Positions 3,098 through 58,288 of a stretch of DNA of 64,000 nt are shown here, in pieces; positions within the stretch are counted from its first letter, which is position 1, and each line of letters starts with the position of its first letter. Where the stretch lies: the NCBI GenBank assembly GCA_022710715.1, contig JAKLGJ010000001.1, positions 42,041 through 106,040 on the forward strand. The letters run 5' to 3'. The notes under the pieces are model-generated. The model did no database searches. It saw only the letters and a list, made by a program, of their open reading frames with translations, and was not told the DNA's origin. The translations under genes were made by a program, and so were the position numbers. The stretch is from Candidatus Omnitrophota bacterium (GTDB taxonomy: Bacteria; Omnitrophota; Gorgyraeia; Gygaellales; Profunditerraquicolaceae).

Positions 3098-3873
3098 CCC
3101 CGAAGATATCCGCGGTAGTGATGATCTATAACGAAGAGAAGCAGATCCGCGCCTGTCTCGAGACCATTCGATGGGTCGACGAGATAGTGATCTGTGATTC
3201 GTATTCCACCGATCGAACGGTGGAGATCTGCCGGGAATATACGGATAAGATATTTCAGAGGCGTTTCGATAATTTCGGCGCCCAGAAGAGCTGGACCCTG
3301 GATAAACCCGGTCATGAATGGGTGCTCTTTGTGGAAGCGGATGAGCGTTTTACGCCGGAACTCGCCCGGGAGATCCGCGACCGCATCGGCCGCGGCGAGG
3401 GATACGACGGATACTGGATGCCGTTCGAGAATTACGTTCTCGGCCGGCGGATGCAGAGTCCTTTCTGGGAGTTCAAGAAGATAAAGCTTTATCGTAAAGG
3501 CACGGGCCGCTGGCAGGAAAGAAGAGTGCATGCCCGATTTATCCTGGACGGTAAAGCCGGAGAACTGACGCATGCCGTCAGACATTATCCCTATGAACGG
3601 CTGGGGGATTTTGTGCGCAAATCCTGGCGGGCGACCACCCTGGAAGCGCAGGAGATCGCGGCAGGGAATAAGGCGCCGGGCTGGACGCAGCTGCCGAAGT
3701 CTTTCCTCGGCGCAGGTCTGACTTTTGCCCGGTTCTATTTCAGCCGGGGAGAATATAAGAACGGTTGGCGGGGATTCGTGTTTTCCTGTTTTGCCGCGCC
3801 GCAGGCGTTCTTGACCCGGATCAAAGCGATTACGTTCAAGGTGCGTGGGTATGGATACCGCCGGGCAGTTTGA
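3082..3873 (+). CDS. Glycosyltransferase family 2 (LPS-core WaaE/KdtX-like)
   Basis: ISAVVMIYNEEKQIRACLETIRWVDEIVICDSYSTDRT, the GT2 'glycosyl transferase family 2' core-biosynthesis type. ATG overlaps the upstream stop. Confidence 0.75.
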   Translation: MDPIVTPKISAVVMIYNEEKQIRACLETIRWVDEIVICDSYSTDRTVEICREYTDKIFQRRFDNFGAQKSWTLDKPGHEWVLFVEADERFTPELAREIRDRIGRGEGYDGYWMPFENYVLGRRMQSPFWEFKKIKLYRKGTGRWQERRVHARFILDGKAGELTHAVRHYPYERLGDFVRKSWRATTLEAQEIAAGNKAPGWTQLPKSFLGAGLTFARFYFSRGEYKNGWRGFVFSCFAAPQAFLTRIKAITFKVRGYGYRRAV

Positions 3874-4873
3874 ATATGTGCGGTGCAATCTTTGTGGCGC
3901 GGATGCGCCGGAGCCGTTCGCCGAAGGTACGGATCGGCTTTTAAAGCGCGGGGAGCGGTTCACGCTGGTTCGCTGCAGCCGCTGCGGGCTGGTCTATCTT
4001 AATCCCCGTCCGGCGCTCGCCGATCTGGCCCGGCATTATCCGCCGGAGTATGTCGCGTATAAGAAGATCGCCGCTGAACAGGTGGGCATTATGGGGCGGG
4101 GCACCGGTCGGTATGCCCGGCTCAAGAACCGGATCAAGCAGAGCATCCTGGAACGGTATTACGGATATCCTGCGGCGGATACGCGTGGGGGTCTCCCGCG
4201 CTGGCGGGTCCGGTTGTTCCTGGGAGTATTCCGCCGGATGTATTACCGGACTGTTCCCTGGGTGGCTGGCGGCAGGGTGCTGGATGTGGGGTGCGGCAAC
4301 GCCGCGTATCTGGCCTGGCTGAAGCAGCTGGGATGGCAGGTGCAGGGAGTGGAAATCGACCCGGGGTGCGTGCGGTATGCCCGGGAAGTCTTCGGTATCG
4401 ATGTCTTCGCAGGCCGGTTGCGGGACGCCGGGTTTGCCGACGAGTCGTTCGATTGCATTACCCTGTGGCATTCTCTGGAACATTGCGAGGATCCCAGCGG
4501 TATTCTAGCGGAATGCCGGCGCATCTTGAAAAAAGGCGGTTTACTGGTGATCTGTGTGCCCAATGTCGGTTCCTGGGAAGCCGCTCTGTTCAAACAGAGA
4601 AGCCTGTTGTGCGATCTTCCCAGGCATTTCTACGATTTTTCCGGGCGGACTCTTTCCCGGCTGCTGGAAAAGAATGCTTTAAGCCTGCGGCATATACGGT
4701 ATCTGGAGGATGTTCCCATCATCGACTGGACGCTCAACGGCTGGCTGGCAGAGAAGAACATCCCGTTGCGACTGCCGGCCGGGATGTGGCGCAGTCCTTT
4801 GCTGCGCCCGCTCTACGCGCTGATGGAACGGCTGCGGACGGCGAATGTGATGATCTGTTACGCGCGAAGATAA
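3845..4873 (+). CDS. Class I SAM-dependent methyltransferase with N-terminal Cys4 zinc ribbon
   Basis: CNLCG...CSRCGLVYLNP zinc ribbon, then LDVGCGNAAYLAWL (SAM motif I) and LWHSLEHCEDP/GGLLVICVPN. An alternative ATG at 3851 is possible. Confidence 0.75.
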   Translation: MGMDTAGQFEYVRCNLCGADAPEPFAEGTDRLLKRGERFTLVRCSRCGLVYLNPRPALADLARHYPPEYVAYKKIAAEQVGIMGRGTGRYARLKNRIKQSILERYYGYPAADTRGGLPRWRVRLFLGVFRRMYYRTVPWVAGGRVLDVGCGNAAYLAWLKQLGWQVQGVEIDPGCVRYAREVFGIDVFAGRLRDAGFADESFDCITLWHSLEHCEDPSGILAECRRILKKGGLLVICVPNVGSWEAALFKQRSLLCDLPRHFYDFSGRTLSRLLEKNALSLRHIRYLEDVPIIDWTLNGWLAEKNIPLRLPAGMWRSPLLRPLYALMERLRTANVMICYARR

Positions 4874-6982: not shown

Positions 6983-8103
6983 AAATTCTGATGATCGATG
7001 CCGGCGGATGGGGAGGGATCACCCATTACACCTATAATCTGATCCGGGCTTTGTCGCAGGACGCATCGCTGGAATGCGTGCTTTTGACCGACACCGCATA
7101 TGAGCTGGATTTCCTGCCGCGTAACTTCAGGATGATCAAAGCCGGATTCAACGGCCGGGCGTATCCGGTTCAGGTGTTGGGGTTGGTGAAAACGGTCCTG
7201 GCGGTGCGGCCGGCAGTGATCCATGTGCAGACGCTCTTTACCGCCAGAAAAGACTGGTTGTTGTTTTTGCTCTGCCGCTGGCTGGGGATAAAGATCATCC
7301 TTACCGCTCATAATGTCATGCCGCACGAGGAATTCGAGCAGAAGGCTTTTTTCATGCGCCGGGCGATGCGTATCATGTATGCTTCCTGCCGCGCGATCAT
7401 CGCGCATTCCGCGTTCTCCCGGGAGCAACTGATACGGTCTTTCGGACTTCCGGCCGGCAGGATCCGGATCATCCCGCACGGCAATTATCTTTTCGCGCGG
7501 ACAGCGGAGATCACCAGAGAACAGGCAAGGCAGCAGCTGGGGATCCCTCAAGGAAAAACCGTATTCCTGCATTTCGGCGCTTTGCGCCGGTATAAGGGGA
7601 TCGATGTCCTGCTGGAAGCGTTCAAGCAGCTGCGGCTTGCCAACGACGGCGTTTTTCTGGTGCTGGCAGGAAAACCCATGCATCTCGATGAAGAGTATTT
7701 CCTGCGTCTCATCGCCGGGCTGGGATTGCAGGAGGACGTGTTGTTCAAACCGGGGTACGTGCATTTCAAGGATATCGCGGCCTTTTTCTTTGCCAGCGAT
7801 GCGGCGGTATTTCCCTATATCCGCACCGATACCAGCGGATCGCTGCAACTGGCTTACGCTTTCGGCAAGCCGGTGATCGCCACTCAAGTCGGCGGTATCC
7901 CCGAAGACGTGGAGAATAATCGTAACGGGATCCTGGTCGCTCCCGGGGATCCGGTTACCCTGAAGCTGGGGATGGAGGTCCTCGTCTTTCATCCGCAGTC
8001 ATTGGTGGCGATGGGCCGGCGTTCCTTGGCTCTGGCGCAGGAACGTTTTTCCTGGACGCAGATCGCCGTTTCGACCGCCGCTTTGTATAGAGAAAGTATA
8101 TGA
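6979..8103 (+). CDS. Glycosyltransferase family 4
   Basis: MKILMIDAGGWGGITHYTYNL...FPYIRTDTSGSLQLAYAFGKPVIATQVGGIPE. ATGA overlap with the upstream stop; the longer ORF-track start at 6784 is rejected. Confidence 0.8.
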   Translation: MKILMIDAGGWGGITHYTYNLIRALSQDASLECVLLTDTAYELDFLPRNFRMIKAGFNGRAYPVQVLGLVKTVLAVRPAVIHVQTLFTARKDWLLFLLCRWLGIKIILTAHNVMPHEEFEQKAFFMRRAMRIMYASCRAIIAHSAFSREQLIRSFGLPAGRIRIIPHGNYLFARTAEITREQARQQLGIPQGKTVFLHFGALRRYKGIDVLLEAFKQLRLANDGVFLVLAGKPMHLDEEYFLRLIAGLGLQEDVLFKPGYVHFKDIAAFFFASDAAVFPYIRTDTSGSLQLAYAFGKPVIATQVGGIPEDVENNRNGILVAPGDPVTLKLGMEVLVFHPQSLVAMGRRSLALAQERFSWTQIAVSTAALYRESI

Positions 8104-9599
8104 TGCCGGAAAGAGCAGTTCTTCTGATCATCCTCTGCGTTGTGATCGTGCTTTCAACGCTGGGTTTTTCCGCTCTGCCTGCGCCGTACGGGGACAATGC
8201 CCGGTATATCATCGTGGCCCAGTCCCTGGCTGCGGGCAAAGGTATGGCGCTGGCCAACGCGCCCGAACAGCCGCAGGATACCAAGTATCCGCCGGGATAT
8301 CCGCTGCTGCTGGCAGGGTTGATCGGGATATTCGGGTATCACCTTGCCTTGCTCAACGCTTTGTCGTTGCTCTGCACGCTGGCAACGGTGGTGATTGCCT
8401 GGAAATTCACGCGGGTGCTCGGTTTTACCCGGGGAATGCGCATACTGCTGACAGGGATCTTCGCTTTGCATCCTTTGACTTTGGAATATTCCCGGGTAAC
8501 CCTGATCGAAGCGGCGTTTGTTCTGACTTTGTTAAGCACGCTGTATTGCCTGGCGCGTTTTGAGTCGGAGAACAAAGCAGGATGGCTCCGGGCAGCCGGG
8601 GCGTTGATGATCGGCGCATTCTGTATCCGCTATTCCGCGATCATCCTGACGGTCGCGTTTATCTTTGTCGTGCGGCGGAATAAAACGCGTGCCGGCTTGA
8701 TCGGTATCTGCGGCTTGACGCTGCTTCTCCTGGCGGCGGCTTTTTTCTACAGCGGCCGGAATTTTTCCGGGAGTTATTTCGCCGAGATCCTGGATGCGGG
8801 AAATTACCTGCGGCCGGGGAACGGGACGATCGGTCTGACGGGGTTCGCCGGACGGTACGCGTACAATGCCGCGGCGTATGCCGGAAATGTTTTGCCGGAA
8901 ACCATGCTGCCGGTCACCCGTTATATCCTTCCGCATACTTTCTGGTGGCCGGCGAAGATCCTGCTCGGTCTCGGGTGTTTGGCAGCGATGAGTGCGGGAT
9001 TCTTCAGGCTCCGGCGCAGGGAGGGCGCAAGGAATTCCCTGGTTTTTGTCCTGGTTTATGCGTTGCTGCTGCCGGCATTCCCGACGTATGGCAGCCGGTA
9101 TTTATTTGCGGCGTTATTCTTTGTGCTGGTCCTGGCATTTACCGGCATGGAGCGACTGTTCCGCCGGCGCGCGCCTGCGGTTCTTGCCGCCGCAGGAGCG
9201 ATCTTTGCGGCCGGAGCGATCTGTGCAACCGCGGATATCGGCATGATCAGGCAGGGGTTCGAGCCGCAGTGGCGTAATTTCTATCGCAGCCTCGATTTTA
9301 TCAAAGAGCACGCTCCGGCGCAGGCGGTGGTGGTCTGTCGAAAACCATTCCTGGCTTACCTGGTCGCTCAACGCAGGGCAGTGGGATTTCCCGCGACCGC
9401 AGATACCGGCCGGATGATGGAGTATCTTCGCCGCATAGCCGGGGCATACGTGATCGTGGATAGTATCGATATCGCCGGGATACAGTTCAGCCGGCGGTTT
9501 CTGGAACCGGCGGTGCGCGACTACGGCGATAATTTTGAACTGCTCTATCGTCTGGAAGCGCCGCAAACGGCAGTGTATAAAGTAAAGACCGAACCATGA
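8100..9599 (+). CDS. Polytopic membrane glycosyltransferase, PMT_2/ArnT-like (GT39/GT83 family)
   Basis: More than 10 predicted TM helices. N-terminal GDNARYIIVAQSLAAGKG resembles the DxxRY/DE motif of the ArnT/PMT family. ATGA overlap. Confidence 0.65.
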   Translation: MMPERAVLLIILCVVIVLSTLGFSALPAPYGDNARYIIVAQSLAAGKGMALANAPEQPQDTKYPPGYPLLLAGLIGIFGYHLALLNALSLLCTLATVVIAWKFTRVLGFTRGMRILLTGIFALHPLTLEYSRVTLIEAAFVLTLLSTLYCLARFESENKAGWLRAAGALMIGAFCIRYSAIILTVAFIFVVRRNKTRAGLIGICGLTLLLLAAAFFYSGRNFSGSYFAEILDAGNYLRPGNGTIGLTGFAGRYAYNAAAYAGNVLPETMLPVTRYILPHTFWWPAKILLGLGCLAAMSAGFFRLRRREGARNSLVFVLVYALLLPAFPTYGSRYLFAALFFVLVLAFTGMERLFRRRAPAVLAAAGAIFAAGAICATADIGMIRQGFEPQWRNFYRSLDFIKEHAPAQAVVVCRKPFLAYLVAQRRAVGFPATADTGRMMEYLRRIAGAYVIVDSIDIAGIQFSRRFLEPAVRDYGDNFELLYRLEAPQTAVYKVKTEP

Positions 9600-17928: not shown

Positions 17929-19115
17929 TACAAAAACGCAATCTGCGCAGATTTTTGCTCAAAACTTTCCGGCAGCCGGGGTACGCCCTGGGTGTCGCGC
18001 GCAAACGCGCTCTGGCCTATCTGATGTATCTGGGGGGCAGCGGCAGGAGCCGTTTGCCGGAATCGCTCACTCTTTTTCTGACCCATCGTTGTAACCTGCA
18101 GTGTAAAATGTGCGGGCAGTGGGGGGAGGCAGGGGTGACCCGCAAAAACCCGGCCGGAGCGTCCGGTAAGGAATTAAGTCTGGAAACGTACCGGCGTCTC
18201 CTGGAAGAAATCGGTCCGTATAAACCGAATATCACTTTGTTCGGAGGAGAGCCGCTGTTGTATCCGCACGCGGTGGAATTGATCGAACAGATCAAGCGGA
18301 AAAAGATGCACTGTTTGATGATTACTAACGGCGCGTTACTTTCCGGCTGCGCGCAAAAGCTGGTGGAAAGCGGCCTGGATGAATTGAACGTTTCGCTTGA
18401 TGGCGACCGGTCTGTTCACGACGGTATCCGGGGCATGCCCGGGTTGTTTGAAAAGATCATGGCCGGTTTACAGGCAATAGCCGAACATAAGAGCCGTCTG
18501 GGGCTGGCGCGCCCCCTGGTGCATCTGCAATGCACGATCAACAGCGGCAATTTTATGTATCTGGACGTCGTGCCGGCGGTGGCCAGGCGGGCCCGGGCCG
18601 ACGCTTTGACGTTCCATCATCTGATACATCTTGACCGTTCGGAGCTGGAGGCGCAGGAACGGCTGTGCGCGCAACTGGGTTGTTCTGGCGCGGGATGGCA
18701 GGGGTTTGTCTTCGGCCACGGCATAGACGTGGGTGTGCTGAAGGAACAGCTCGGCCGCGCAAGCGCGCAGGCGGCAGGACCGGCGATAGACGTGTATCCG
18801 GCTTTCTCGCCGGAGGAGATCGACCGTTATTACAATATATCCGGTAATTATTCCGAGTATAACAGTTATAGTAGTTACAGTAACTATTGTAAATCAATCG
18901 GCGCGCGCTGCTTGAGCCCCTGGATAGCGGGATATCTGTTCCCCGGGGGGGATCTGCGGCCGTGCTTGAACCTGGATTACAGCTTCGGGAATATAGGAGA
19001 GCAGCCCCTGCGGGCGGTCTGGAACAGTCCGTCGGCGCGGCGCTTCCGGAGATTCCTGAAAGTGCAGCGGTTGTTTCCCGCCTGCGCGCGGTGCACCGAA
19101 CTTTACCGGTATTAA
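17925..19115 (+). CDS. Radical SAM enzyme with C-terminal SPASM/twitch Cys cluster
   Basis: CNLQCKMCGQW (CxxxCxxC) ... LFGGEPLL ... C-terminal CKSIGARC...PC...PACARC. Start chosen at the ATGA overlap (MIQKRN), not the ORF-track start 17628. Contains the low-complexity stretch YNISGNYSEYNSYSSYSNY. Confidence 0.7.
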   Translation: MIQKRNLRRFLLKTFRQPGYALGVARKRALAYLMYLGGSGRSRLPESLTLFLTHRCNLQCKMCGQWGEAGVTRKNPAGASGKELSLETYRRLLEEIGPYKPNITLFGGEPLLYPHAVELIEQIKRKKMHCLMITNGALLSGCAQKLVESGLDELNVSLDGDRSVHDGIRGMPGLFEKIMAGLQAIAEHKSRLGLARPLVHLQCTINSGNFMYLDVVPAVARRARADALTFHHLIHLDRSELEAQERLCAQLGCSGAGWQGFVFGHGIDVGVLKEQLGRASAQAAGPAIDVYPAFSPEEIDRYYNISGNYSEYNSYSSYSNYCKSIGARCLSPWIAGYLFPGGDLRPCLNLDYSFGNIGEQPLRAVWNSPSARRFRRFLKVQRLFPACARCTELYRY

Positions 19116-19234
19116 GAAGCAGCGCCCGGAACCGGCGCCGTGTTGTGGTAACAATTATATGTATTGTATGTTTTATAGTTATTGTAGTTACTATAATTAT
19201 TAAATGTCTTGAGTGCAATCGGGAGGCGGGTCGG

Positions 19235-20371
19235 GTGCGTATCTCGCATATCATTACACGCATGGATTGGGGCGGCAGTCCGGATATCGTCAGGCTCCTG
19301 TTTCAGGGGCTCGAAGCGCAGGGGGCGCAGTGTACCCTGATCACCGGGCCTACGGAATATCCCGGCGTCAGGACCCGGGAATTTCTCGAGCGGATACGCG
19401 CCAGGCTGCTGGTAGTTGAGGAATTGCAGCGCCAGCCCCAGGGGTATAAGGATATCGTTGCCTGCCGGAAGCTGACCAGACTGTTGCGGCAGGGCGAGTT
19501 CGATATCGTGCATACCCATACCGCCAAGGCCGGCGCTCTGGGCAGGATCTCTGCCCGGCTGGCGGGAGTCAAACACGTGGTGCATTCGCCGCACGGCCAT
19601 AATTTCTACGGTTATTTTAACTTCGTATTCAGCCGCTGTATCGCTGTTACCGAGCGGGCCCTGGCGCCTTTGGCCGAGGTCCTGGTGGTGCAGACGCAGT
19701 TGGAAAAAGAGGATTATATCCGTTACGCGGGAGTAGACCCCGGCCGTATCCGGGTCATTCCGCAAGGGATCGAGCCGGTTTCCGGCAGTCCGGATATTCC
19801 GGCTATCAGGCGCAGTTTAGGCATCCCCGCCGGCAATCAGGTCGTGGGAACGGTCAGTCGTCTCGAGCCGGTTAAAGGAATCCAATTTTTGATCCTGGCT
19901 GCCGCCCGCCTGGTCAAGACGCGGCCGCAGGTTTCATTCGTGGTGGCGGGCGACGGAAGTCAGGCGGAGCTGCTGCGCGATATGGTCAGCCGCGACAATC
20001 TGGGCGCGTATTTCATTTTCACCGGCTGGCGGGAGGATGCGCGGCAATTGATGCCCGCGTTTGACCTGCTGGTCCAACCTTCTCTGAATGAGTCGGTGGG
20101 GATGGTTTTGCTTGAGGCCCAGGCCGCCGGCGTGCCGGTTATCGCCACCCGCGTCGGAGGGATACCGGAAACGATCGATGAGGGGCATACCGGGTTACTG
20201 GTCGCGCCTGCGGACGCGCACGGTCTGGCTCTTTCCATGCAGGAGCTGCTTTCCGATCCCGACCGGCGCGCGGCAATGGCCGCGCAGGCCCGATCCCGGG
20301 TGGCGCAGCGTTTTCTTGTTTCGCGGATGATCGAATCGCACGCGCATTTGTATCGGGATTTACTGCGTTGA
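19235..20371 (+). CDS. Glycosyltransferase family 4
   Basis: GTG start 8 nt after GGGAGG. N-terminus (V/M)RISHIITRMDWGGSPDIV is the canonical GT4 start. ...ESVGMVLLEAQAAGVPVIATRVGGIPETI. Confidence 0.8.
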   Translation: MRISHIITRMDWGGSPDIVRLLFQGLEAQGAQCTLITGPTEYPGVRTREFLERIRARLLVVEELQRQPQGYKDIVACRKLTRLLRQGEFDIVHTHTAKAGALGRISARLAGVKHVVHSPHGHNFYGYFNFVFSRCIAVTERALAPLAEVLVVQTQLEKEDYIRYAGVDPGRIRVIPQGIEPVSGSPDIPAIRRSLGIPAGNQVVGTVSRLEPVKGIQFLILAAARLVKTRPQVSFVVAGDGSQAELLRDMVSRDNLGAYFIFTGWREDARQLMPAFDLLVQPSLNESVGMVLLEAQAAGVPVIATRVGGIPETIDEGHTGLLVAPADAHGLALSMQELLSDPDRRAAMAAQARSRVAQRFLVSRMIESHAHLYRDLLR

Positions 20372-20437
20372 TCATCGCGCGCGCCGCTCAAAAGAAAATT
20401 AGTCGTTGCGATTTTTTTAAAAAGGGGTATAGTATAC

Positions 20438-21133
20438 ATGATTGTTTCCGTGCATCAGCCGCAATACATTCCCTGGCTGGGCTACATTGACAAGATTGCC
20501 CGCAGCGACCATTTCGTTTTTCTGGACTGCGTGCAATACAAAGAGCGCGAATTCCAGAACCGCAATCGTATCCGGACTGACCGGGGATGGATGTGGTTAA
20601 CCGTACCGGTAATCTCTACCGGTAAGGGCAGGCAGCTTTTCAGCGAAGTGCTCATTGATAACAGTTTCAGATGGAAACAGAAGCACTGGGACACCTGGCA
20701 GACTTTTTACGGCAAAGCTCCATTTTTTGAAGTTCATCGGCAATTTTTCGAAGATACCTACAGTCAAAAATGGGAGAAACTCATGGATTTGAATATTCAT
20801 GTTATTCGCCACATACTTAACTGTCTATCTATAAGCACCGCAATAAGTTTTGAGTCTGAACTGAAGACGTCCAGCACTAAAACCGAACGTATTATTGAAA
20901 TCTGCAAGAAACTCAAAGCCAGCACTTATTTATCCGGGAGCGGGGGCAAGGATTACCTGGATGAGTCGCGTTTTGAAGATGAGGCTATTGATCTGGAATA
21001 CCAGCATTTTACTCATCCGGTTTATCAGCAGCAGTTCATGAAAGATGAAGAGGATTTCCTGCCTTATTTATCTGTTCTGGACCTCTTATTGAACGAGGGG
21101 CCGGATAGCAGACAGGTGATGGGGTATAAATGA
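20438..21133 (+). CDS. WbqC-family protein (LPS/O-antigen cluster associated)
   Basis: MIVSVHQPQYIPWLGYIDKIARSDHFVFLDCVQYKEREFQNRNRI matches the WbqC family N-terminus. Visibly lower GC than the upstream genes. Confidence 0.65.
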   Translation: MIVSVHQPQYIPWLGYIDKIARSDHFVFLDCVQYKEREFQNRNRIRTDRGWMWLTVPVISTGKGRQLFSEVLIDNSFRWKQKHWDTWQTFYGKAPFFEVHRQFFEDTYSQKWEKLMDLNIHVIRHILNCLSISTAISFESELKTSSTKTERIIEICKKLKASTYLSGSGGKDYLDESRFEDEAIDLEYQHFTHPVYQQQFMKDEEDFLPYLSVLDLLLNEGPDSRQVMGYK

Positions 21134-21134
21134 G

Positions 21135-21758
21135 ATGAATATCCTGGCTATCGGGGCCCACCCTGATGATATAGAATTCGGTTGCGGGGGAGCTTTGATC
21201 AAATACGTCCAGGCCGGACACGCGGTCTGGCTTTTTATTTTGACCGACGGCAGTTACGGCGGCAAGCCCGAGATCCGCAAGCGCGAGCAGGAAAAAGCCG
21301 CGCGTTTTATCGGCGCCCGGCGGGTATTCTGGGGGCAGTACGTAGATACGGAGCTGGCGGAAGTCGGGGACAGGGAGTTGATCAAGAAAATGGATGAGGT
21401 TATCCATCAGGTCAAACCGGATATGGTCTTTCTGAATTTCCCCGAAGATGTGCATCAGGATCACCGCGCCGCCGCCCAGGCAGGCGTATCGGCTACCCGT
21501 TATATCAAGGAAGTGCTTTTTTACGAGGTGCCCACCACGCAGCATTTTGAACCCGACGTCTTTGTGGATATCAAAACCGTGCTTAAAAAGAAACAGCAGC
21601 TTTTGCAACTTCATACTTCACAGGTAGATAAGACCCGGGTGCAGAATCTGACTATCCTGGAAAGCGTGCAGTCCTGCGCGAATTTCCGCGGTTTCCAGGG
21701 CAGGGTTAAATACGCCGAAGGGTTCAAGGCTTTACGGTTATTGCGAGAGATCGCTTAA
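21135..21758 (+). CDS. PIG-L/LmbE-family N-acetylglucosaminyl deacetylase
   Basis: ILAIGAHPDDIEFGCGGALIKY...HQDHR: the AHPDD and HxDH zinc motifs of the PIG-L family. Confidence 0.8.
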   Translation: MNILAIGAHPDDIEFGCGGALIKYVQAGHAVWLFILTDGSYGGKPEIRKREQEKAARFIGARRVFWGQYVDTELAEVGDRELIKKMDEVIHQVKPDMVFLNFPEDVHQDHRAAAQAGVSATRYIKEVLFYEVPTTQHFEPDVFVDIKTVLKKKQQLLQLHTSQVDKTRVQNLTILESVQSCANFRGFQGRVKYAEGFKALRLLREIA

Positions 21759-21762
21759 GTCT

Positions 21763-22788
21763 ATGCCTATTATCGCCACTTTTCTGCTCACCTTTTTCGT
21801 CACCTTCCTACTTGTTTTTTTTCTAAGAAAAGTCGCCTGGAAATACAATATTGTGGATAATCCCGGAGGAAGAAAAGTTCACCTGCAAGCCACGCCGTTG
21901 CTGGGAGGCGTGGGCATTTATCTGGGGCTGGTTATCGGGTTGATGGTCAGTTCCACGGATATGGGGCCGTTCCTGCCGGTTATGGCTGGAGCTACGCTGA
22001 TTCTGGCTGTCGGGCTGGTAGAGGATATCCGGGGATTAAGCGCGCAGATACGGCTTATCTTCCAGTTGCTGGCGGCGACCATCATTGTCGGATCCGGGAT
22101 CAAGGTCAGCTTCCTGCCTAATGTTGTCTGGGGGGATATCGCCGAAATCCTGGTTACGGTGATCTGGTTGGTAGGGGTGACCAGCGCTTTCAATTACCTT
22201 GACGGTTTGGACGGGCTGGCTTCCGGTTCTGCGGTGATCAATCTTGCCGCTTTCAGCGTCATACTCTACAGCACCGGTCAGTACGCTCTGGGCAAGCTGT
22301 GCATCATCCTGATTGCCGCCTGCCTGGGGTTCCTGCCGCATAATTTCCGCATTCACCAAAAGATGTTCCTCGGCGAAGCAGGCAGCACTTTGCTGGGATT
22401 TATGCTGGCCAGTATAGCGCTGGTGGGTAACTGGGCCGAGGATAACACGGTCAAGCTCTTTATTCCTATACTTATTATCGCCGTTCCCATCTTTGACATG
22501 ATCTTTACCACGATTATGCGGGTGAGGGAAGGTAAGGTCAAGACGGTGGTGCAATGGCTGCGTTATGGCGGTCGGGACCATTTTCACCATTATCTGGTCT
22601 CTTTAGGGCTTCCCAACGTAGGAGCGGTGATTTTTATCTATTTTGTATCGATTTCTCTGGGAATTGCAGCTTATATGGTGAGCAATGATAAAGCGATCGA
22701 AGGCTTGCTTGCGCTAACCCAGACTGCCATAACTTTTTGCGTTATCGCCATCCTTATTCTTGCCCAGCGCAGGAATTTTCAGCCATAA
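21763..22788 (+). CDS. Polyprenyl-phosphate sugar-1-phosphate transferase (WecA/TagO/MraY family, GT4 membrane)
   Basis: About 10 TM helices; IVDNPGGRKVH...LDGLDGLASG (DGxDGLA motif) of the MraY/WecA superfamily. Confidence 0.8.
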   Translation: MPIIATFLLTFFVTFLLVFFLRKVAWKYNIVDNPGGRKVHLQATPLLGGVGIYLGLVIGLMVSSTDMGPFLPVMAGATLILAVGLVEDIRGLSAQIRLIFQLLAATIIVGSGIKVSFLPNVVWGDIAEILVTVIWLVGVTSAFNYLDGLDGLASGSAVINLAAFSVILYSTGQYALGKLCIILIAACLGFLPHNFRIHQKMFLGEAGSTLLGFMLASIALVGNWAEDNTVKLFIPILIIAVPIFDMIFTTIMRVREGKVKTVVQWLRYGGRDHFHHYLVSLGLPNVGAVIFIYFVSISLGIAAYMVSNDKAIEGLLALTQTAITFCVIAILILAQRRNFQP

Positions 22789-22825: not shown

Positions 22826-22854
22826 TTGACAATTTAAGAAATTTATATAATAAT
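22826..22854 (+). promoter_or_regulatory. Sigma70-like promoter (TTGACA-N17-AATAAT)
   Basis: TTGACA at 22826-22831; AATAAT at 22849-22854 in an AT-rich island, with TATAAT alternatives at 22846. No CDS immediately downstream. Confidence 0.4.
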
Positions 22855-22951
22855 AAGCGCAACAAATAGATAGGAAGTTGAGGCTCCAAATAACCTTTGG
22901 GAAGTAAGTTTGCAACTCTTTCGTGGATGCCCTTGAAAAGGGGATATTTCT

Positions 22952-23086
22952 ATGGTATACTTGCTTCTGACAAATAGGTATTTGGGAAACCGAAATGGCA
23001 AACTCAGGGTGACCTGGGGACGCAAAGTCATGCATCCGCCCGATTGTAGAAGCGGACCGGCAGACTGCCGTAGTTCCTCACGTTAA
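22952..23086 (+). CDS. Hypothetical 44-aa small protein (MVYLLLTNRYLGNRNGKLRVTWGRKVMHPPDCRSGPADCRSSSR)
   Basis: Strong SD AAAAGGGGA 6-7 nt upstream of ATG 22952; stop at 23084-23086, immediately followed by the terminator hairpin. Lies between the promoter at 22826 and the terminator at 23088. Confidence 0.3.
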   Translation: MVYLLLTNRYLGNRNGKLRVTWGRKVMHPPDCRSGPADCRSSSR

Positions 23087-23087
23087 T

Positions 23088-23118
23088 CTCGGGTGTTGTT
23101 TGCCTGAGATTTTTTTTT
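23088..23118 (+). terminator. Rho-independent terminator
   Basis: CUCGGGU-guuguuu-GCCUGAG stem-loop (7 bp with G-U pairs) followed by AUUUUUUUUU. Confidence 0.55.
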
Positions 23119-23128
23119 GACTGGCGCA

Positions 23129-23173
23129 AAAGTGCCAGGCACATAAGGGTTAAGAACATGAAAGTGCCAGGCA
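23129..23173 (+). repeat. Two direct copies of AAAGTGCCAGGCA (13 bp) spaced 32 bp start-to-start
   Basis: Exact copies at 23129-23141 and 23161-23173, between the terminator and the ATG at 23205. Confidence 0.45.
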
Positions 23174-23204: not shown

Positions 23205-24401
23205 ATGCCGAGATTACCCAGAATACATATTGAAGGCGCGCTGTACTTCATTACCAGCAGGGGCGAGATCAACGAATCTATCTTCAAGGACGAAGGAGAT
23301 TATAAGATGTTTCTGGAGCTGATGAAAAGATACCAGGAGCAGTTTGGAGTGAAGATCTTCGCCTTTTGCCTGATGCCGGATCATTTTCATATTCTGGTGG
23401 AAATCGAAAAGTCGATCAAAGAGGATCAATCCTCCGCTCAAAAAACCCAGGAAATGTCGGATTTTATGCAATCATTGAATAACAATTATACCAAATATTA
23501 CAATGGCCGCTATAACCTCAAAGGCCATCTCTTCCGCGAACGCTACAAATCCGCGATTATTCAGAAAGAGAATAATCTTTTGAAAATGACCGCTTATCTG
23601 CATTTAAATCCGGAAAAGCTTGCCTTGGCGGAAGACGCCAAAGATTATCCTTACAGCAGCTATCAGCTTTACCTATATAATGACCCGGTCAAACAGGCGG
23701 ATCTGCAGTTCCTGCGGGATGCGGTGAATGAGGCTTTGAGTTTTCTGGGTAATCAGAGTTACGGCGAGTTTGTGCGCGGCCTGGACCCGGAAGAAGGGGC
23801 TTCCATTCACAAGCGGCTTAATCGCGGCGGGATCCTGGGATCGGAAGAATTCGTAGCCATGGTCAAATCCGAAGTGGAAGCATACCAGGCCGGCGGACTG
23901 GGCCAGAAACTGGAAATCAATGCCAAGAATTATTATAAATTGTTCTTTGTCCTGGGCAGCGTGGTTTTTGTGCTGGTGGCTACCCTGGGCGGGTTATATT
24001 TCGTTTCCCTGCGCAAGAAAGTGCAGACGCTCTCCAAAACCGAAGCGGCCGCGAAGGCTACCAATCATCAGCTCGATGCTTTGAATTCATCGGAATGGCA
24101 GGTAAAGATCATCGGCGGCCCCCAGAAACCCGAGGATGCGGATATCCTGACTTTTATCAACGGTAAATTTGTTTCCGCCAGGATGAATTCCCTGGGGTAT
24201 CCGGGGTCGAATTATTCCATCGCGGTGCAGGAAGACAATAAGGTGGTCTGGGAAACCATGCAAAGTTCCGCCAGCGGTATTGTTTCCTGGCACGGTGAAC
24301 TGGAACAGGACAAAATGACCGGAGTGATCAGCCTGCGGGAAAACGGGAAAGACCCGCAGGATTTTTCATTTGTGAGCATTGCCCACAGGAGGAAGAAATG
24401 A
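23205..24401 (+). CDS. RAYT/IS200-like HUH-Y1 (TnpA_REP-like) domain fused to a TM helix and an about 150-aa C-terminal extracytoplasmic domain
   Basis: N-terminal 150 aa carry GALYFITSR ... MPDHFHILVE (HUH) ... AYLHLNPEKL (catalytic-Tyr helix), alignable to E. coli RayT (LPEHMHCIW / DYIYINPVKHG). Then a TM segment LFFVLGSVVFVLVATLGGLYFVSL and a C-terminal domain of unknown function. Confidence 0.7.
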   Translation: MPRLPRIHIEGALYFITSRGEINESIFKDEGDYKMFLELMKRYQEQFGVKIFAFCLMPDHFHILVEIEKSIKEDQSSAQKTQEMSDFMQSLNNNYTKYYNGRYNLKGHLFRERYKSAIIQKENNLLKMTAYLHLNPEKLALAEDAKDYPYSSYQLYLYNDPVKQADLQFLRDAVNEALSFLGNQSYGEFVRGLDPEEGASIHKRLNRGGILGSEEFVAMVKSEVEAYQAGGLGQKLEINAKNYYKLFFVLGSVVFVLVATLGGLYFVSLRKKVQTLSKTEAAAKATNHQLDALNSSEWQVKIIGGPQKPEDADILTFINGKFVSARMNSLGYPGSNYSIAVQEDNKVVWETMQSSASGIVSWHGELEQDKMTGVISLRENGKDPQDFSFVSIAHRRKK

Positions 24402-47708: not shown

Positions 47709-47718
47709 ACTTCCGCTG

Positions 47719-47757
47719 CGGAACCGTGTTGCACCGCGCAGGTGTAACACGGTTCCG
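47719..47757 (+). terminator. Long hairpin downstream of the giant gene (putative terminator or processing site)
   Basis: CGGAACCGTGTT...AACACGGTTCCG forms a perfect 12-bp stem, extendable to about 16 bp. No U-tract follows. Confidence 0.4.
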
Positions 47758-47878
47758 TAGTAAGCGTTCCGGACCCTGGATATGACCGCGTAACGTCGTT
47801 ATTCCGCAGCGAATATCTGCAGTTCTCCTGCCGTCGTAATTTTCTTTTTCTTTTTGCTTGCGTAGCGGCAAAAAAACG

Positions 47879-48396: not shown

Positions 48397-48488
48397 CAAC
48401 GTGAAACTATACACCTTGCGCAAATTGCACCTAACGCTAATAAGGAATTGCGTTAGTGTGCCCTGTGGTCAAATTGCGCAAGTGTTTC

Positions 48489-48509
48489 GTCCCGCGGCTG
48501 CCGCGGGAC
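48489..48509 (+). promoter_or_regulatory. Perfect 9-bp stem / 3-nt loop hairpin immediately upstream of the atpF SD
   Basis: GTCCCGCGG-ctg-CCGCGGGAC, 3 nt before AAGGAG (48512-48517). Confidence 0.45.
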
Positions 48510-48524
48510 TCAAGGAGTTCTAAG

Positions 48525-49244
48525 ATGAATATTCTGATCCCGATGCTGGTGGTGCTGGTGGTGCTGTTCTTCATTATGATGCATTTTATGTCGAAAATGA
48601 TCAAAGGCGATGTGGTTTCTGCGACCGCGCATCTTGACCAGCAGGCCCAGGAATATGCCAAGAAAGACGCTGATCTTGCCAAAAAATTCGAAGAGCTCAA
48701 GCGTCAGGGCCAGGAGATCGTCGCCAATGCCCAGAAGGAAGCGCAGCAGAAGAGCGAAGAGCTTTTAAAGGAAGCGGCGCAGGAGAAGGAAAAGGTCATT
48801 GCCGCCGCCCACCTTCAGGCGGATGAAGTGATCAAGCAGGCGGACGCCGCCCGGCTGGCGCTTCTGGCGGACATGGACAAGAAAGTCGATGAACGCGCCG
48901 TGGTTAAGGCGGTAGAATTGCTTTCCCAATCCTTGCCGGAATCGGTGCGCAGCCACATGCATGAGCGCTGGGTCGCGGATCTGATCGGCACCAGTTTCGA
49001 ACAACTCGACCGTCTGAAGATCCCCGGGGATGTGCATATCGCGGAAGTGGTCAGCGCTTTCGCTTTAAGCCCCGAGCAGCGGGAAATGCTTGCTGCCAAA
49101 CTTTCCGAGAAGATCGGCAGACAGATGGAAGTGCAGGAAAAAGTCGATCCTGCGATCATCGCCGGATTGATCGTGACTATCGGCAGTCTCTTTTTCGACG
49201 GAAGCGTGCGGTTCAAGATCCAGGAGGTAGCGCGTGCCGAATAA
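48525..49244 (+). CDS. atpF: F-type ATP synthase b subunit fused to the delta (OSCP) C-terminal domain
   Basis: N-terminal TM helix MNILIPMLVVLVVLFFIMM, a long charged coiled-coil, and a C-terminus ...LSPEQREMLAAKLSEKIGRQMEVQEKVDPAIIAGLIVTIGSLFFDGSVRFKI resembling the delta C-domain. SD AAGGAG sits 7 nt before the ATG. Confidence 0.65.
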   Translation: MNILIPMLVVLVVLFFIMMHFMSKMIKGDVVSATAHLDQQAQEYAKKDADLAKKFEELKRQGQEIVANAQKEAQQKSEELLKEAAQEKEKVIAAAHLQADEVIKQADAARLALLADMDKKVDERAVVKAVELLSQSLPESVRSHMHERWVADLIGTSFEQLDRLKIPGDVHIAEVVSAFALSPEQREMLAAKLSEKIGRQMEVQEKVDPAIIAGLIVTIGSLFFDGSVRFKIQEVARAE

Positions 49245-50715: not shown

Positions 50716-51566
50716 ATGAGACTGCTTTCGGCGATCAAAAAGGATATGGATTTCAATCTCAACCTCTATAATCTCATCGAGGTGCTCAAAGAGATCGCCA
50801 TTGCCCAGTATAAGATCCTGGAAAAGAAGCTCAAGACTTTTGACGAAGTGTTCAACCATCTGGGGACCATTTTCGACCTGTTGCAGGTGGGAAATACCGG
50901 GCATCCGTTGCTGAATCCCGCCGGCCGCCAGGCGGGCGTTATCGCGCTTACTTCCGACGCCGGGCTTCTGGGTGGTTTGAACATGAGCGTGATGAGCCAG
51001 GCGATCAAGGAAGCGGACAAGGTCAAGGGCCGCTTGATCATTGTCGGCGAGAAAGGGCAGATGTACGCTCAAGAAACGGATCTGCCGTTCATCGTTTTTA
51101 AAGGCGTCAAAGACGAGACGCGGTTCGAGCAGGCGCAGCAGTTGCGCGATTACGTGCTGGCCGAGGAATTAAGCGGTAAATTAGGCCAGCTCAAGATCGT
51201 CTATCCGGTGGCGCTGTCTATCGTTTCGCAGCAGGTCAAGACGCTGCAGTTGTTCCCTTTTTCCACCGCGGAACATTTGCAGCGCAGGCCGGCGCCCGCG
51301 ATCGCCGCCAACGGCGTGATCCTGGAATCGGCGGTCGGCGATATCCTGGAATACTGGATACATCTGTTCCTGGCGCAGAAATTCTATCAGATCTTCGGGC
51401 TTTCCCGGCTGGCGGAGTTATCGGCCCGGTACAATCACCTGGAGACCAGCAAGGGCAAGATCGATAACCTGAACAAAGAGTTGAAGCTGCAGTATTTCCG
51501 GCAGCGCCATGAAATGATCGATAAGAATATCCGCGAGCTTTTCTGCGCGCGGCTGGCGTTTAAATA

Positions 51567-51567
<1 letters not shown>
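50716..51567 (+). CDS. atpG: F-type ATP synthase gamma subunit
   Basis: VIALTSDAGLLGGLN (ITSDRGLCGGxN motif) and a C-terminal helix. Confidence 0.8.
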
Positions 51568-53022
<1,455 letters not shown>

Positions 53023-53078
53023 TAGTGGAAGCACCTATTACTGCGGCCGCAGACGCATACAACGGGAGGAAGAGGAGC

Positions 53079-55759: not shown

Positions 55760-55764
55760 CCCGT

Positions 55765-56988: not shown

Positions 56989-57001
56989 GGGAGTGCGGTA
57001 G

Positions 57002-57865: not shown

Positions 57866-57883
57866 CCGTGGACGGAGGGGACG

Positions 57884-58288
57884 ATGAGAAAAGCATTTAC
57901 TCTGATTGAATTGATGCTGGTGGTGGTGATTATCGGCGCGCTGGTGGCAATGGTGATGCCGCGATTGACCGGCAGGGGAGAGCAGGCCCGCGGCACTGCG
58001 GCTAAGGCCGATATCGACGCGAATATCGCCACAGCGCTGAAACTCTATGAGCTCGATAACGGGGAATTTCCTTCGACCAGCGAAGGGTTGAGCGCTCTGG
58101 TGACGAAATCTTCCAGCGCCAATAACTGGAAGGGGCCGTATCTGGAAAAGGGCAAAGTCCCCCTTGATCCCTGGGGCAGGGAATACAAATACAAATCTCC
58201 CGGCGATCATCGCACGCAGGATTACGATCTGTATTCCCTGGGCAAAGACGGAGTGGAAAGCGCGGATGATATCAAGAACTGGGAATAA
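57884..58288 (+). CDS. gspG: Major pseudopilin GspG
   Basis: MRKAFTLIELMLVVVIIGAL prepilin cleavage/methylation motif; the GspG-typical body ...LYELDNGEFPS...PWGREYKY. Confidence 0.85.
   Translation: MRKAFTLIELMLVVVIIGALVAMVMPRLTGRGEQARGTAAKADIDANIATALKLYELDNGEFPSTSEGLSALVTKSSSANNWKGPYLEKGKVPLDPWGREYKYKSPGDHRTQDYDLYSLGKDGVESADDIKNWE

Follow-up and report, generated by a model that had tools for sequence, protein, structure and literature searches.

The domesticated function of RAYT proteins has been an open question since their discovery. The best structural and profile match to the protein described here is Escherichia coli TnpA-REP/RayT (YafM; PDB 4ER8), a soluble protein of ~165 aa whose gene sits amid hundreds of dispersed REPs. 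The two proteins have a common fold, and they share an HUH motif, a catalytic Tyr with an Asn at +4, single-copy vertical inheritance and a short palindrome of REP type. Unlike RayT, the Omnitrophota protein is 398 aa long, has a transmembrane (TM) helix and an external barrel, and is encoded in a riboswitch-controlled operon; its motif is present as two phased direct copies and only in its own leader. The closest sequence relatives outside Omnitrophota belong to TnpA-Y1 subclass 2.1, in which a Y1 core is combined with a serine motif and a Bac_DnaA_C/HTH domain (Quentin et al. 2018, PMC6006769). Both have an 'SSY' serine motif after the Tyr helix and neither is associated with classical IS features, whereas the duplex-DNA-binding HTH of subclass 2.1 is replaced in the Omnitrophota protein by a TM helix and an extracytoplasmic domain, and the subclass 2.1 relatives are without the riboswitch, the GTGCCAGGCA motif and the giant gene. 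The TnpA-Y1 survey (PMC6006769) nowhere uses the word 'membrane'.

The leader resembles those of the c-di-GMP-I (GEMM-I) operons, such as Cd1 of Clostridioides difficile and Vc1/Vc2 of Vibrio cholerae, where an aptamer and a terminator also precede a surface-protein operon. Unlike the GEMM-I adhesin, pilus and flagellar operons, the Omnitrophota operon starts with a gene for a Y1-like membrane protein, has a cargo of 7-8 thousand residues and contains a second conserved cis-element at a fixed distance past the terminator. ToxR, TcpP and CadC are bitopic one-component transcription regulators in which a DNA-binding domain in the cytoplasm (N-in) is joined by one TM helix to a sensor in the periplasm. 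They recognize direct repeats close to the promoter that they regulate and often have a small periplasmic protein as a partner. The Omnitrophota protein, whose function we infer, is like them in topology and site arrangement only. It differs in that the DNA-facing module has an HUH/Y1 fold, no OmpR-type winged helix being matched in the 398 aa by Pfam or NCBIfam, and in that the sites are mostly inside a transcribed riboswitch leader. Among HUH proteins, pMV158 RepB, AAV Rep and geminivirus Rep bind phased direct repeats of duplex DNA beside their nick site, which is a precedent for an HUH domain reading phased repeats; these proteins are of the Rep class and not Y1, act in replication instead of operon regulation and have no detected sequence similarity to ours. 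In the literature that we searched, there is no description of the fusion, of the motif or of a riboswitch before Omnitrophota giant genes.

Here, we describe a gene in a 64-kb stretch of Omnitrophota DNA (the window, i.e. all 64,000 nucleotides analyzed), together with its leader, its operon and its homologues. The features of the locus are collected in Table 1.

Table 1. Coordinates, in window positions, of the leader, the 398-aa gene with its predicted domains, and the downstream operon
Feature	Position	Strand	Basis or remarks
Distal sigma70-like promoter, TTGACA-17-AATAAT	22826..22854	+	Consensus scan, 11/12 matches
Proximal promoter, TTGAAA-17-TGgTATACT, extended -10	22933..22961	+	Consensus scan; ~25 nt before aptamer
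c-di-GMP-I riboswitch aptamer, predicted	22987..23072	+	Rfam RF01051, 54.9 bits vs gathering 35, E=5.6e-8
Intrinsic terminator, riboswitch expression platform	23085..23118	+	11-pair stem, 5-nt loop, T9
Motif copy 1, AAAGTGCCAGGCA	23129..23141	+	Palindromic core GTGCCAGGCAC; core begins 13 nt past T-run
Motif copy 2, AAAGTGCCAGGCA	23161..23173	+	32 nt (3 helical turns) past copy 1, 41 nt before ATG
Whole ORF	23205..24401	+	Single ATG-to-stop ORF, 398 aa
HUH/Y1 (RAYT-like) domain, predicted cytoplasmic	23205..23684	+	Residues 1-160; H60-F-H62, Y131, N135, YPYSSY serine motif
Helical extension and juxtamembrane helix	23685..23939	+	Residues 161-245; secondary structure of model
Single transmembrane helix	23940..24011	+	Residues 246-269; hydropathy maximum 2.5
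Extracytoplasmic 8-stranded beta-barrel, predicted	24081..24392	+	Residues 293-396; W298, F317, S324, W362, G373, F387, F389 invariant
Small secreted protein, 162 aa	24398..24886	+	Signal peptide; start overlaps Y1-gene stop (ATGA)
Giant surface protein, 7,609 aa	24879..47708	+	Signal peptide, beta-propeller-like N-terminal region, C-terminal TM anchor
20-nt-arm inverted repeat	47716..47760	+	90% complementary, 5-nt loop, directly after giant ORF stop; T-run absent

The sequence-only reading had recognized a RAYT-like HUH domain at the N-terminus, and profile and structure comparisons bear this out. Pfam Y1_Tnp (PF01797) matches residues 24-133 with 46.7 bits against a cutoff of 23 (E=4e-12), and 4er8 is matched both by the family profile (residues 3-150, E=1.9e-4) and by the AlphaFold model (pLDDT mostly >90 in this domain), for which it is the best PDB match (Foldseek E=6.6e-7, TM 0.67 on target). 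The NCBIfam model REP_Tyr_transpos (NF047646) gives 76.6 bits over residues 5-151, just short of its cutoff of 80, and the IS200/IS605 transposase model (NF033573) gives 16 bits where 55 are needed. The YFITSR-type start and the two sequence motifs named in that reading are all found at the implied places (ALYFITSRG at residues 12-20, MPDHFHILVE at 57-66, AYLHLNPEK at 130-138), and the HUH and Tyr motifs are retained as it had supposed, since H60, H62 and Y131 align with the active site of 4er8: H60/H62 correspond to H59/H61, Y131 to Y115 and N135 to N119. Y115 is the catalytic tyrosine of TnpA-REP (PMC3479197). Among the aligned homologues, H60, H62 and N135 are present in 65/65 and Y131 in 64/65. 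Conservation within the protein is highest in the Y1 domain, where R111, R113, K97, Y95 and N100 are invariant.

The fusion is one intact ORF, as had been proposed: a check for frameshifts found none, and more than 100 homologues cover 98-100% of its length. The helical extension that follows the Y1 domain is common to Y1 + DnaA_C-type relatives up to about residue 225. Alignments with Nitrospirota and CPR relatives span residues 1 to 188-225; the Nitrospirota relatives, of 310 aa, align over residues 1-225 and have a weak Bac_DnaA_C match. A TM helix had been predicted at residues 235-258; it is present but lies at 246-269, the sole hydrophobic segment of the protein (Kyte-Doolittle 2.5 over 19 residues). 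The model has this segment in a single long helix (214-268), and all aligned homologues keep it.

A linker of ~25 aa leads to the folded C-terminal domain, in which the other two quoted sequences are found, EWQVK from residue 297 and GVISLRENGKDPQDF at residues 373-387. This domain had been described as about 140 aa of no recognizable family; there is indeed no match in Pfam or NCBIfam, but the folded part is only ~105 aa (residues 293-396). A word-index search with the 116-aa C-terminal domain alone returned a single fragment and was replaced by an exhaustive profile search, which places the domain in a large uncharacterized family (1,349 cluster representatives, E<=1e-3). The family includes secreted stand-alone proteins, one of them encoded beside a secretin and another giant gene, and the stand-alone relatives that we inspected have signal peptides. 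Compared with the Cap15-type receptor barrel, a cytoplasmic, cyclic dinucleotide-binding CBASS effector, the C-terminal barrel does not qualify as a member. The 398-aa protein itself has no signal peptide. From this, from the single strong TM helix and from the signal peptides of the stand-alone barrels, we infer an N-in/C-out topology, that is, a type-II membrane protein with the Y1 domain and its extension inside and the barrel outside the cytoplasmic membrane.

The gene is part of a cassette present in about 65 genomes and conserved across Omnitrophota and relatives, in the order promoter, c-di-GMP-I riboswitch, intrinsic terminator, a gap of 13-14 nt, two copies of AAAGTGCCAGGCA, Y1 gene, small secreted protein and giant protein. 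The Y1 gene heads an operon of three genes and is translationally coupled to the two behind it. The end of the small-protein ORF overlaps the start of the giant ORF by 8 nt, and the inverted repeat after the giant ORF is the probable operon end. The neighborhood is fixed: WbqC, PIG-L and GT4 genes lie upstream, and the succession of Y1 gene, small ORF and giant ORF is found in about 50 of 55 loci. As many of the loci are phylogenetically related, this and the other counts overstate the number of independent events. Homologous small ORFs were found in 41 further loci (40/49 main-family small ORFs and L074). Giant ORFs are present in essentially every orthologous locus; the called ones are 6,717-8,192 aa long and the rest stay open past 3,100 aa. 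The giant protein contains tens of near-identical Kre9_KNH-type Ig-like repeats.

NCBI and JGI annotate the gene as 'transposase' or 'RayT'. The members of the fusion family are ~380-420 aa long, their full-length orthologues are 27-62% identical, and each species genome has one copy, with the exception of one MAG with two; in single copy and vertical inheritance, the family behaves as RAYTs do. REP/REPIN flanks (REPtron) and dispersed REPs were absent from the 64-kb window and from 1.3 Mb around the orthologues. Within the window, neither a TnpB-like ORF nor repeated IS ends are seen, and repeat families are absent: its perfect hairpins number just 10 and are unrelated, and the only 14-mers found at least three times are in the giant ORF. 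The earlier statement that TnpB, IS ends and REP arrays are missing is thus right for the window, but two REP-type core copies lie 32-76 nt before the ATG. These copies and the database label are the points in favor of a functional mobile element, i.e. a RAYT or IS200-type transposase with unusual cargo. We consider such an element highly improbable, given the single copy, the synteny shared phylum-wide at 27-62% identity, the absence of TnpB, repeated ends and dispersed motif copies, and the membrane anchor of the protein. The suggestion that this is not a mobile element is therefore upheld, and the available evidence strongly supports an exapted HUH/Y1 domain.

Of the two predicted promoters, the distal one (CTTGAC..TATAAT) is kept in 6/8 close orthologous leaders, and the proximal one (CCTTGA...TGGTATACTTTTTTCTGACAAGTAGG) is nearly invariant in 8. 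Rfam detects the aptamer upstream of the orthologous gene in 15/18 loci, and a purpose-built covariance model detects it in 67 loci, always on the + strand and in the leader only (1.27 Mb searched); L027 has two adjacent weak matches. In an alignment of 16 aptamer sequences, 96% of cells are paired and there are 8 compensatory pairs, which none of 500 shuffles reaches. A strong hairpin with T6-9 follows the aptamer in 32 of the 33 leaders folded, L087 being the exception. By score, covariation and expression platform, the leader element qualifies as a predicted c-di-GMP-I riboswitch. Since the aptamer and the terminator do not overlap, ligand-promoted termination would be the simplest reading. 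We also considered an antiterminator that pairs aptamer P2 with the terminator, and rejected it: a resemblance is seen in many loci, with no co-variation where P2 differs.

The second cis-element of the leader is the duplicated motif. Its exact 10-mer occurs in the leader of 57/88 loci and nowhere else in those loci, almost always on the coding strand, and in 57/59 leaders it begins 12-16 nt after the T-run. We found no further exact copies in the 64-kb window or in 1.3 Mb around orthologues. The spacings between copies across loci are restricted to 20-23, 30-32, 42-43, 53, 63-64, 72, 97 and 137 nt, and their circular concentration peaks (R=0.8) at a period of 10.5-10.7. The palindrome itself has a stem of just 4-5 bp. 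In riboswitch-less loci, the motif abuts the -35 element (L070) or lies at about +7 to +20 of a sigma70-like promoter (L053 and L072).

Several roles for the motif were evaluated. A sigma54 promoter was rejected: the reverse complement has TGGCAC, but neither strand has a TTGC at the required spacing. An ordinary promoter element was rejected as well: in riboswitch leaders the motif follows the conserved promoter at a distance of >150 nt, whereas in loci without a riboswitch it precedes the promoter or comes just after it. An RNA element, such as a protein-binding site or hairpin in the 5' UTR, appears disfavored because the spacing is quantized at 10.5 nt and the placement is promoter-proximal. 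The helical phasing of the copies points to duplex DNA, and spacing by whole turns yet of variable length is the pattern expected of sites that all face a membrane.

The motif core is also found outside Omnitrophota: in other bacteria, distant Y1-like genes are surrounded by REP-like clusters of it. A metagenome scan that started from the motif gave 3/80 loci with such genes (N-terminal-domain HMM E=3e-11 to 5e-8; NCBIfam REP_Tyr_transpos E=1e-7 to 7e-6). One of them (L157) has GGTGCCAGGCACC palindromes on both sides of the Y1-like gene, including an inverted pair; another (L114) has a palindrome pair directly upstream of the gene, and the third (L106) a cluster downstream. Most of the motif-first loci are REP- or minisatellite-like clusters with arbitrary spacing on a fragment without a Y1 gene, and tblastn of the cassette proteins against all 80 returned no matches.

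These observations can be brought together in a proposal that we hold with about even confidence: an exapted Y1 domain, tethered to the membrane, would bind operators and in this way regulate the giant-protein operon locally or tether it. The cytoplasmic Y1 domain would bind the leader motif, the core of the REP family that accompanies Y1-like genes elsewhere, and the protein would thereby regulate its own locus from the membrane by binding DNA, following the logic of ToxR but with an HUH fold. Bound 13-14 bp beyond the U-tract, it would be in a roadblock position and could stall RNA polymerase at the terminator. An input from the envelope, through the barrel and the small protein, would join the c-di-GMP input, and/or the locus would be held at the membrane, where the giant protein gets exported. 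The Y1 domain is put forward as the motif binder by elimination, as the only cytoplasmic module of nucleic-acid-binding type that the operon encodes.

The link between the Y1 domain and the motif is associative. Characterized Y1/RAYT proteins bind single-stranded hairpins and, to our knowledge, duplex direct repeats are read only by other HUH classes (RepB, AAV Rep, geminivirus Rep). The motif also occurs outside the cassette, and it could be bound by a regulator encoded elsewhere.

The catalytic residues have a more complex history in related lineages. The HUH histidines were lost in at least five of them (L087, L070, L071, L074 and L072), of which L071, L074 and L087 lost the Tyr as well; in L053 the Tyr alone was lost, and in L076 the HUH motif is degenerate. 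The motif and the giant gene are retained in every one of these lineages, as is the riboswitch in L087, L071, L074 and L076. The sequence-only reading had concluded on an exapted HUH enzyme: the exapted HUH/Y1 domain stands, while enzyme status is not established in view of these losses. Because lineages without HUH and/or Tyr keep the cassette, the conserved role of the Y1 domain is more likely to be binding than cleavage. The near-universal HUH and Tyr in the main family suggest that catalysis still matters there, and nicking or covalent attachment may persist in most lineages without being required for the retention of the system.

The same residues bear on a different possibility, in which an active HUH nuclease would nick or covalently join the coding (non-template) strand at the motif once transcription exposes that strand. 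The consequence would be covalent anchoring of the locus to the membrane during export, or recombination that varies the repetitive giant gene. We regard this as unlikely, although HUH, Tyr and the metal-ligand Asn are present in 64-65 of 65 homologues and align with the active site of TnpA-REP, the coding strand carries the motif in almost all cases, the motif core forms the sort of small palindrome that Y1 enzymes read, and tens of near-identical repeats make up the giant gene. In seven lineages the histidines and/or the Tyr have been replaced, yet the motif and the giant gene are kept, and in four of these lineages the riboswitch too; the 10.5-bp spacing and the promoter-overlapping placement fit duplex operators; and the palindrome stem is short, with no cleavage-site signature found.

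The regulator or tether that we favor must also be weighed against a role confined to the envelope. The protein could be an assembly or export accessory of the giant protein, with the barrel and the small protein working in the periplasm, the Y1-like part as a cytoplasmic scaffold without a nucleic-acid role and an unlinked transcription factor reading the motif. The secreted stand-alone barrels, with one beside a secretin and another giant gene, are in keeping with this, as are the translational coupling of the three genes and the dispensability of the catalytic residues in some lineages. We judge it quite improbable nonetheless, because the Y1 domain, with its invariant residues, is the most conserved part, and because distant Y1-like genes are independently accompanied by the same motif. 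The absence of the motif elsewhere in 1.3 Mb around the cassettes also makes a global regulator unlikely. Furthermore, a variant subfamily trades the barrel for a coiled coil, which takes its place, and retains the Y1 domain, the riboswitch and a variant of the motif. Other arrangements of the parts exist: in L087, a fusion joins the Y1-like and TM module and the domain of the small protein (33% identity over 105 aa, E=2e-9), and a separate barrel gene with a signal peptide is close by, and L072 has an additional stand-alone barrel gene.

More tentatively, and with somewhat less than even confidence, the regulator or tether proposed here may represent an unrecognized class of one-component regulators, in which a membrane-anchored Y1 domain reads REP-derived operators one RNA-polymerase footprint past a c-di-GMP riboswitch terminator, so that RNA and protein signals converge on one termination site. 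If this is true, a second-messenger signal (RNA) and an envelope or export signal (protein on DNA) would control a gene of ~23 kb, which would perhaps also be physically positioned at the membrane. A transposase and its cognate repeat would have been co-domesticated as a regulator-operator pair, a clear case of such co-domestication into host regulation in prokaryotes. HUH tags are already in use for protein-DNA coupling, and a small HUH domain with a putative specific site of 10-13 nt and a natural membrane anchor is a possible tool.

For Omnitrophota genomics, the annotation of the gene has practical consequences. In a recent preprint, transposases that flank giant genes are counted as indications of mobile DNA, and an unrecognized host gene named 'transposase' could inflate such counts around giant genes. 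The giant surface proteins of Omnitrophota are thought to mediate attachment or predation, and neither a c-di-GMP input nor a dedicated membrane protein appears in the giant-gene papers that we examined. If our proposal is correct, the cassette would offer a testable handle on how these giant surface proteins are controlled, by c-di-GMP and by a dedicated membrane protein.

The 398-residue protein encoded by the Y1-TM-barrel gene contains every sequence motif quoted in the sequence-only reading, and profile searches together with an AlphaFold model match bear out the assignment of its N-terminal part to the HUH/Y1 domain. This domain scores 46.7 bits against Pfam Y1_Tnp (cutoff 23) and 76.6 bits over residues 5-151 against the NCBIfam REP-associated tyrosine transposase model, slightly below the cutoff of 80. 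A profile of 65 homologues matches Escherichia coli TnpA-REP (4er8) over residues 3-150 (E=1.9e-4), and the full-length AlphaFold model (mean pLDDT 85.6) has 4er8 as its top PDB match (E=6.6e-7), followed by the IS200, IS608 and ISDra2 transposases. H60-F-H62, Y131 and N135 line up with H59/H61, Y115 and N119 of TnpA-REP, of which the histidines and the asparagine are metal ligands and the tyrosine is the nucleophile (PMC3479197). H60, H62, H133 and N135 do not vary among the 65 aligned homologues, 64 of which also have Y131.

A single strongly hydrophobic helix follows, as had been proposed, although it spans residues 246-269 rather than 235-258. The C-terminal domain, previously put at about 140 residues, has a folded part of about 105 residues, predicted to be an eight-stranded beta-barrel (domain model pLDDT 91.3, pTM 0.83); that it has no recognisable family holds for Pfam and NCBIfam, from which the barrel family is absent. 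The lack of a signal peptide, together with the single TM helix, predicts a cytoplasmic Y1 domain and a barrel on the outside.

Database sources label this protein 'transposase' or 'RayT'. The gene is nevertheless a conserved host gene and not a mobile element, the latter as the sequence-only reading thought probable: the fusion is conserved, there is about one locus per genome and the neighbourhood is fixed. Searching 5.8 billion proteins gave 302 relatives. Of the top 120, most are full-length (98-100% coverage, 36-62% identity, about 380-420 aa), nearly every one that has a source name is named Omnitrophota, and each comes from one or a few contigs. Scanning one genome per species gave about 60 full-length loci, one in each genome with a single exception, although the loci are phylogenetically related and this and our other locus counts overstate independence. 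The exception, MAG JAKPTF01, has two complete cassettes (L006 and L007), each with a riboswitch, two motifs, a Y1-TM-barrel gene, a small ORF and an open giant ORF; their proteins are each about 62% identical to that of the window, and they are either two paralogous giant-protein operons or the product of a mixed bin. Upstream, the fixed neighbours are WbqC, a PIG-L deacetylase and a family-4 glycosyltransferase; downstream, the order is a small ORF and then a giant ORF, which is called at 6,717, 8,192, 6,906 and 7,685 aa in other assemblies and is still open past >3,100 codons in about 50 of 55 genome loci. The 64-kb window has no TnpB-like ORF, in agreement with the earlier account, and no 14-mer occurs three times in it outside the giant ORF. 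The accompanying statement that flanking REP arrays are missing is right in that the window's perfect hairpins are 10 unrelated ones, but the leader carries two copies of a REP-type motif.

Coordinates of the cassette and its neighbours in the window
Feature	Position	Strand	Remarks
Glycan-synthesis block	18962-22788	+	GT4-type glycosyltransferase, WbqC, PIG-L deacetylase, WecA-like Glycos_transf_4
Proximal promoter-like site	22933-22961		Extended -10; nearly invariant in eight orthologous leaders
c-di-GMP-I riboswitch	22987-23072	+	Sole Rfam match in the window; 54.9 bits, gathering score 35
Intrinsic terminator	23085-23118	+	11-pair hairpin and nine T's, 3' of the riboswitch
Motif AAAGTGCCAGGCA, two exact copies	23129-23141, 23161-23173	+	Between terminator and ATG
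Y1-TM-barrel gene	23205-24401	+	Single ATG-to-stop ORF, 398 aa
Giant ORF	24879-47708	+	7,609 aa
Inverted repeat	47716-47760	+	20-nt arms, 90% complementary, 5-nt loop; 8 nt past the giant ORF stop, without a T-run
F-type ATP synthase genes	48456-53022	+	Delta-like, alpha, gamma, beta
Type II secretion/type IV pilus-like cluster	53025-60268	+	MshEN-domain protein, T2SSE ATPase, T2SSF, pseudopilins T2SSJ and T2SSK

Two promoter-like sites precede the riboswitch. Of 18 orthologous loci, 15 have a c-di-GMP-I aptamer in front of the gene according to Rfam. A covariance model built from those matches extends this to 67 loci; in 1.27 Mb all its matches fall in the leader, in coding orientation, and L027 has two adjacent weak ones. 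The same approach found no riboswitch in non-Omnitrophota relatives matching the Y1 domain only. In the aptamer alignment 96% of cells are paired and 8 pairs have changed on both sides, a result equalled by none of 500 shuffles, and the structure is maintained by compensatory changes. As the terminator and the aptamer do not overlap, ligand-promoted termination appears to be favoured; a search of the riboswitch leaders for a co-varying antiterminator found none. The terminator often has GTTTGCC, the complement of the invariant GGCAAAC of the aptamer, in its loop and 3' arm. Its 5' arm is often C(C/T)CAGGCA, the right-hand 7 nt of the motif (in leaders such as L026, L041 and L044), so that the terminator resembles an inverted pair of motif halves.

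The motif is nearly invariant in the leaders of L001-L088, usually present twice, and has the consensus AAA-GTGCCAGGCA-c. Of these 88 loci, 57 have the exact 10-mer GTGCCAGGCA in the leader, with one to three copies that nearly all lie on the coding strand; the rest of these loci (1.3 Mb of related sequence, about 20 kb per genome) has none, and the only further match in the 64-kb window has two mismatches. Its position is fixed, the distance from the T-run to the start of the motif core being 12-16 nt, mostly 13-14, in 57 of 59 leaders. Start-to-start spacings between copies are 20-23 (15 loci), 30-32 (33), 42-43 (3), 53 (3), 63-64 (2), 72, 97 and 137 nt, with no intermediates, and the circular concentration over the 15 distinct spacing values is highest (R=0.8) at a period of 10.5-10.7. 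That the copies lie whole B-DNA turns apart argues for a reader that contacts duplex DNA from one face. In three related cassettes with no detectable riboswitch, the motif abuts the -35 hexamer (L070), lies a few bases 3' of the -10 hexamer (L053) or lies a few bases past it (L072, from Ratteibacteria), which are classic operator positions.

Four lines agree in pointing to the Y1 domain as the putative reader of this motif: elimination, a motif-first search, dispensable catalysis and clade co-variation. Within the loci scanned the motif is private to the leader, and a dedicated factor is therefore expected to read it. The Y1 domain is the operon's only cytoplasmic nucleic-acid-type module; a signal peptide is present on both the small and the giant protein, and the latter also has a C-terminal anchor.

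For the motif-first search, metagenomes were scanned for two copies of the 10-mer, giving 80 fragments, most of which contain unrelated clusters, REP-like or of minisatellite type, of the palindrome GGTGCCAGGCACC in high-GC DNA. Three of the 80 carry distant Y1-like genes of 400-500 aa (E=3e-11 to 5e-8 with the N-terminal domain profile; E=1e-7 to 7e-6 against NCBIfam REP_Tyr_transpos), so any enrichment rests on three loci. In L157 palindromes lie on both sides of the gene (163-250 and 2347-2540, minus-strand coordinates) and include an inverted pair, which is a REPtron/REPIN arrangement; L114 has a palindrome pair directly upstream, and L106 a cluster about 450-600 nt downstream. The palindromes are GGTGCCAGGCACC or, in L106 and part of L157, the core variants GTGCCAGGCAC/GTGCCTGGCAC. 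These fragments look like an undescribed REP family with a RAYT-like partner in other bacteria, probably PVC or high-GC, and on these pairings the motif is the core element of a REP family which elsewhere accompanies Y1-type genes.

The Y1 catalytic residues are dispensable in some lineages. The HUH region reads PCQLQL instead of PDHLHL in L087, PDQITL in L070, SNQVNM in L071, SERLFL in L074 and SDKVYL in L072, and is degenerate in L076; the tyrosine is replaced by Phe in L087 and L071 and by His in L074 and L053. All seven loci retain the motif (or a close variant) and the giant gene, and L087, L071, L074 and L076 retain the riboswitch as well. As for co-variation, the leader of the coiled-coil subfamily has a single GTGCCACGCA; this clade-level change of protein type and motif counts as one evolutionary event, and so is a weak line. 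In that variant subfamily (L060-L067, L064, L071, L076) the Y1 and TM protein has a conserved C-terminal coiled coil (…DLQELYRADLVSYQAMQKRLEIEK…) in place of the barrel, and the small ORFs before the giant ORF differ (180, 193 and 290 aa, one of them polytopic).

An exhaustive profile search gave 1,349 representatives of the barrel family, mostly proteins of about 200 aa. All 15 examined (P0142-P0256) have an N-terminal signal peptide; 14 of them also have a linker rich in Lys and Glu, one barrel and a tail of low complexity, and in P0155 the barrel occurs three times. The tail is acidic and often ends in a basic-aromatic tip (WFGR, WWQ). In L087, from a different lineage, a secreted member (3237-3986) adjoins a secretin and another giant gene. 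That giant gene has its own riboswitch, terminator and two motif copies (7622-9347), then a 450-aa protein directly before a 6,457-aa ORF; in this protein the small-secreted-protein domain is fused to a TM helix and a Y1-like domain that is catalytically dead. Such fusions and fissions make a single functional unit of the Y1 module, barrel, small protein and giant protein. The stop of the window's Y1-TM-barrel gene overlaps the start of a 162-aa ORF (ATGA), which in turn overlaps the start of the giant ORF by 8 nt. The small secreted protein has homologues in 41 other loci. Along with its signal peptide and C-terminal TM anchor, the giant protein contains a beta-propeller-like N-terminal region (weak Vgb_lyase match), tens of Ig-like units of about 85 aa of the Kre9_KNH type and a coiled-coil region; the interior of its ORF contains many long spurious antisense ORFs.

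In distant genomes (L001, L003, L005) the glycan-synthesis block is likewise conserved ahead of the cassette; its role may be to glycosylate the giant protein or to make a glycan associated with it. The giant gene and the secretion cluster are separated by the ATP synthase genes, whose delta/OSCP match covers just the last 70 or so residues of a 262-aa ORF. The T2SSE ATPase of that cluster has both MshEN and PilZ domains, which are c-di-GMP-binding types. The cluster adds a second c-di-GMP-linked system at a distance of less than 6 kb from the giant gene.

The operon is under riboswitch control, and its first product is a bitopic membrane protein that has its Y1 domain, as predicted, in the cytoplasm. 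The operon's leader has copies of a REP-type motif that are phased and fixed in position. We infer that the Y1 domain binds these copies. RNA polymerase halts about 14 bp before bound EcoRI-Q111 in roadblock experiments; with the motif 13-14 bp past the U-tract, bound protein would hold polymerase on the U-tract, leading to stronger termination or pausing. The barrel and small protein might sense the envelope or export state and could thereby modulate the c-di-GMP decision. Sites that need to face the membrane would tolerate any whole number of helical turns, and holding the locus there may aid co-translational export of the 7,609-residue protein.

The Y1-TM-barrel protein belongs to the domesticated Y1/RAYT kind. 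TnpA-REP/RayT is the closest structure, and outside the phylum Y1 + DnaA_C-type proteins (subclass 2.1, PMC6006769) are nearest in sequence; their HTH has been replaced in the present family by a TM helix and an external domain. That survey of TnpA-Y1 proteins never mentions membrane-bound members, and the papers examined on Omnitrophota giant genes mention neither the Y1-TM-barrel gene nor a c-di-GMP riboswitch. The protein is similar in logic to ToxR-type regulators but lacks their defining domain. If binding and regulation are confirmed, it would represent a new class of regulator.
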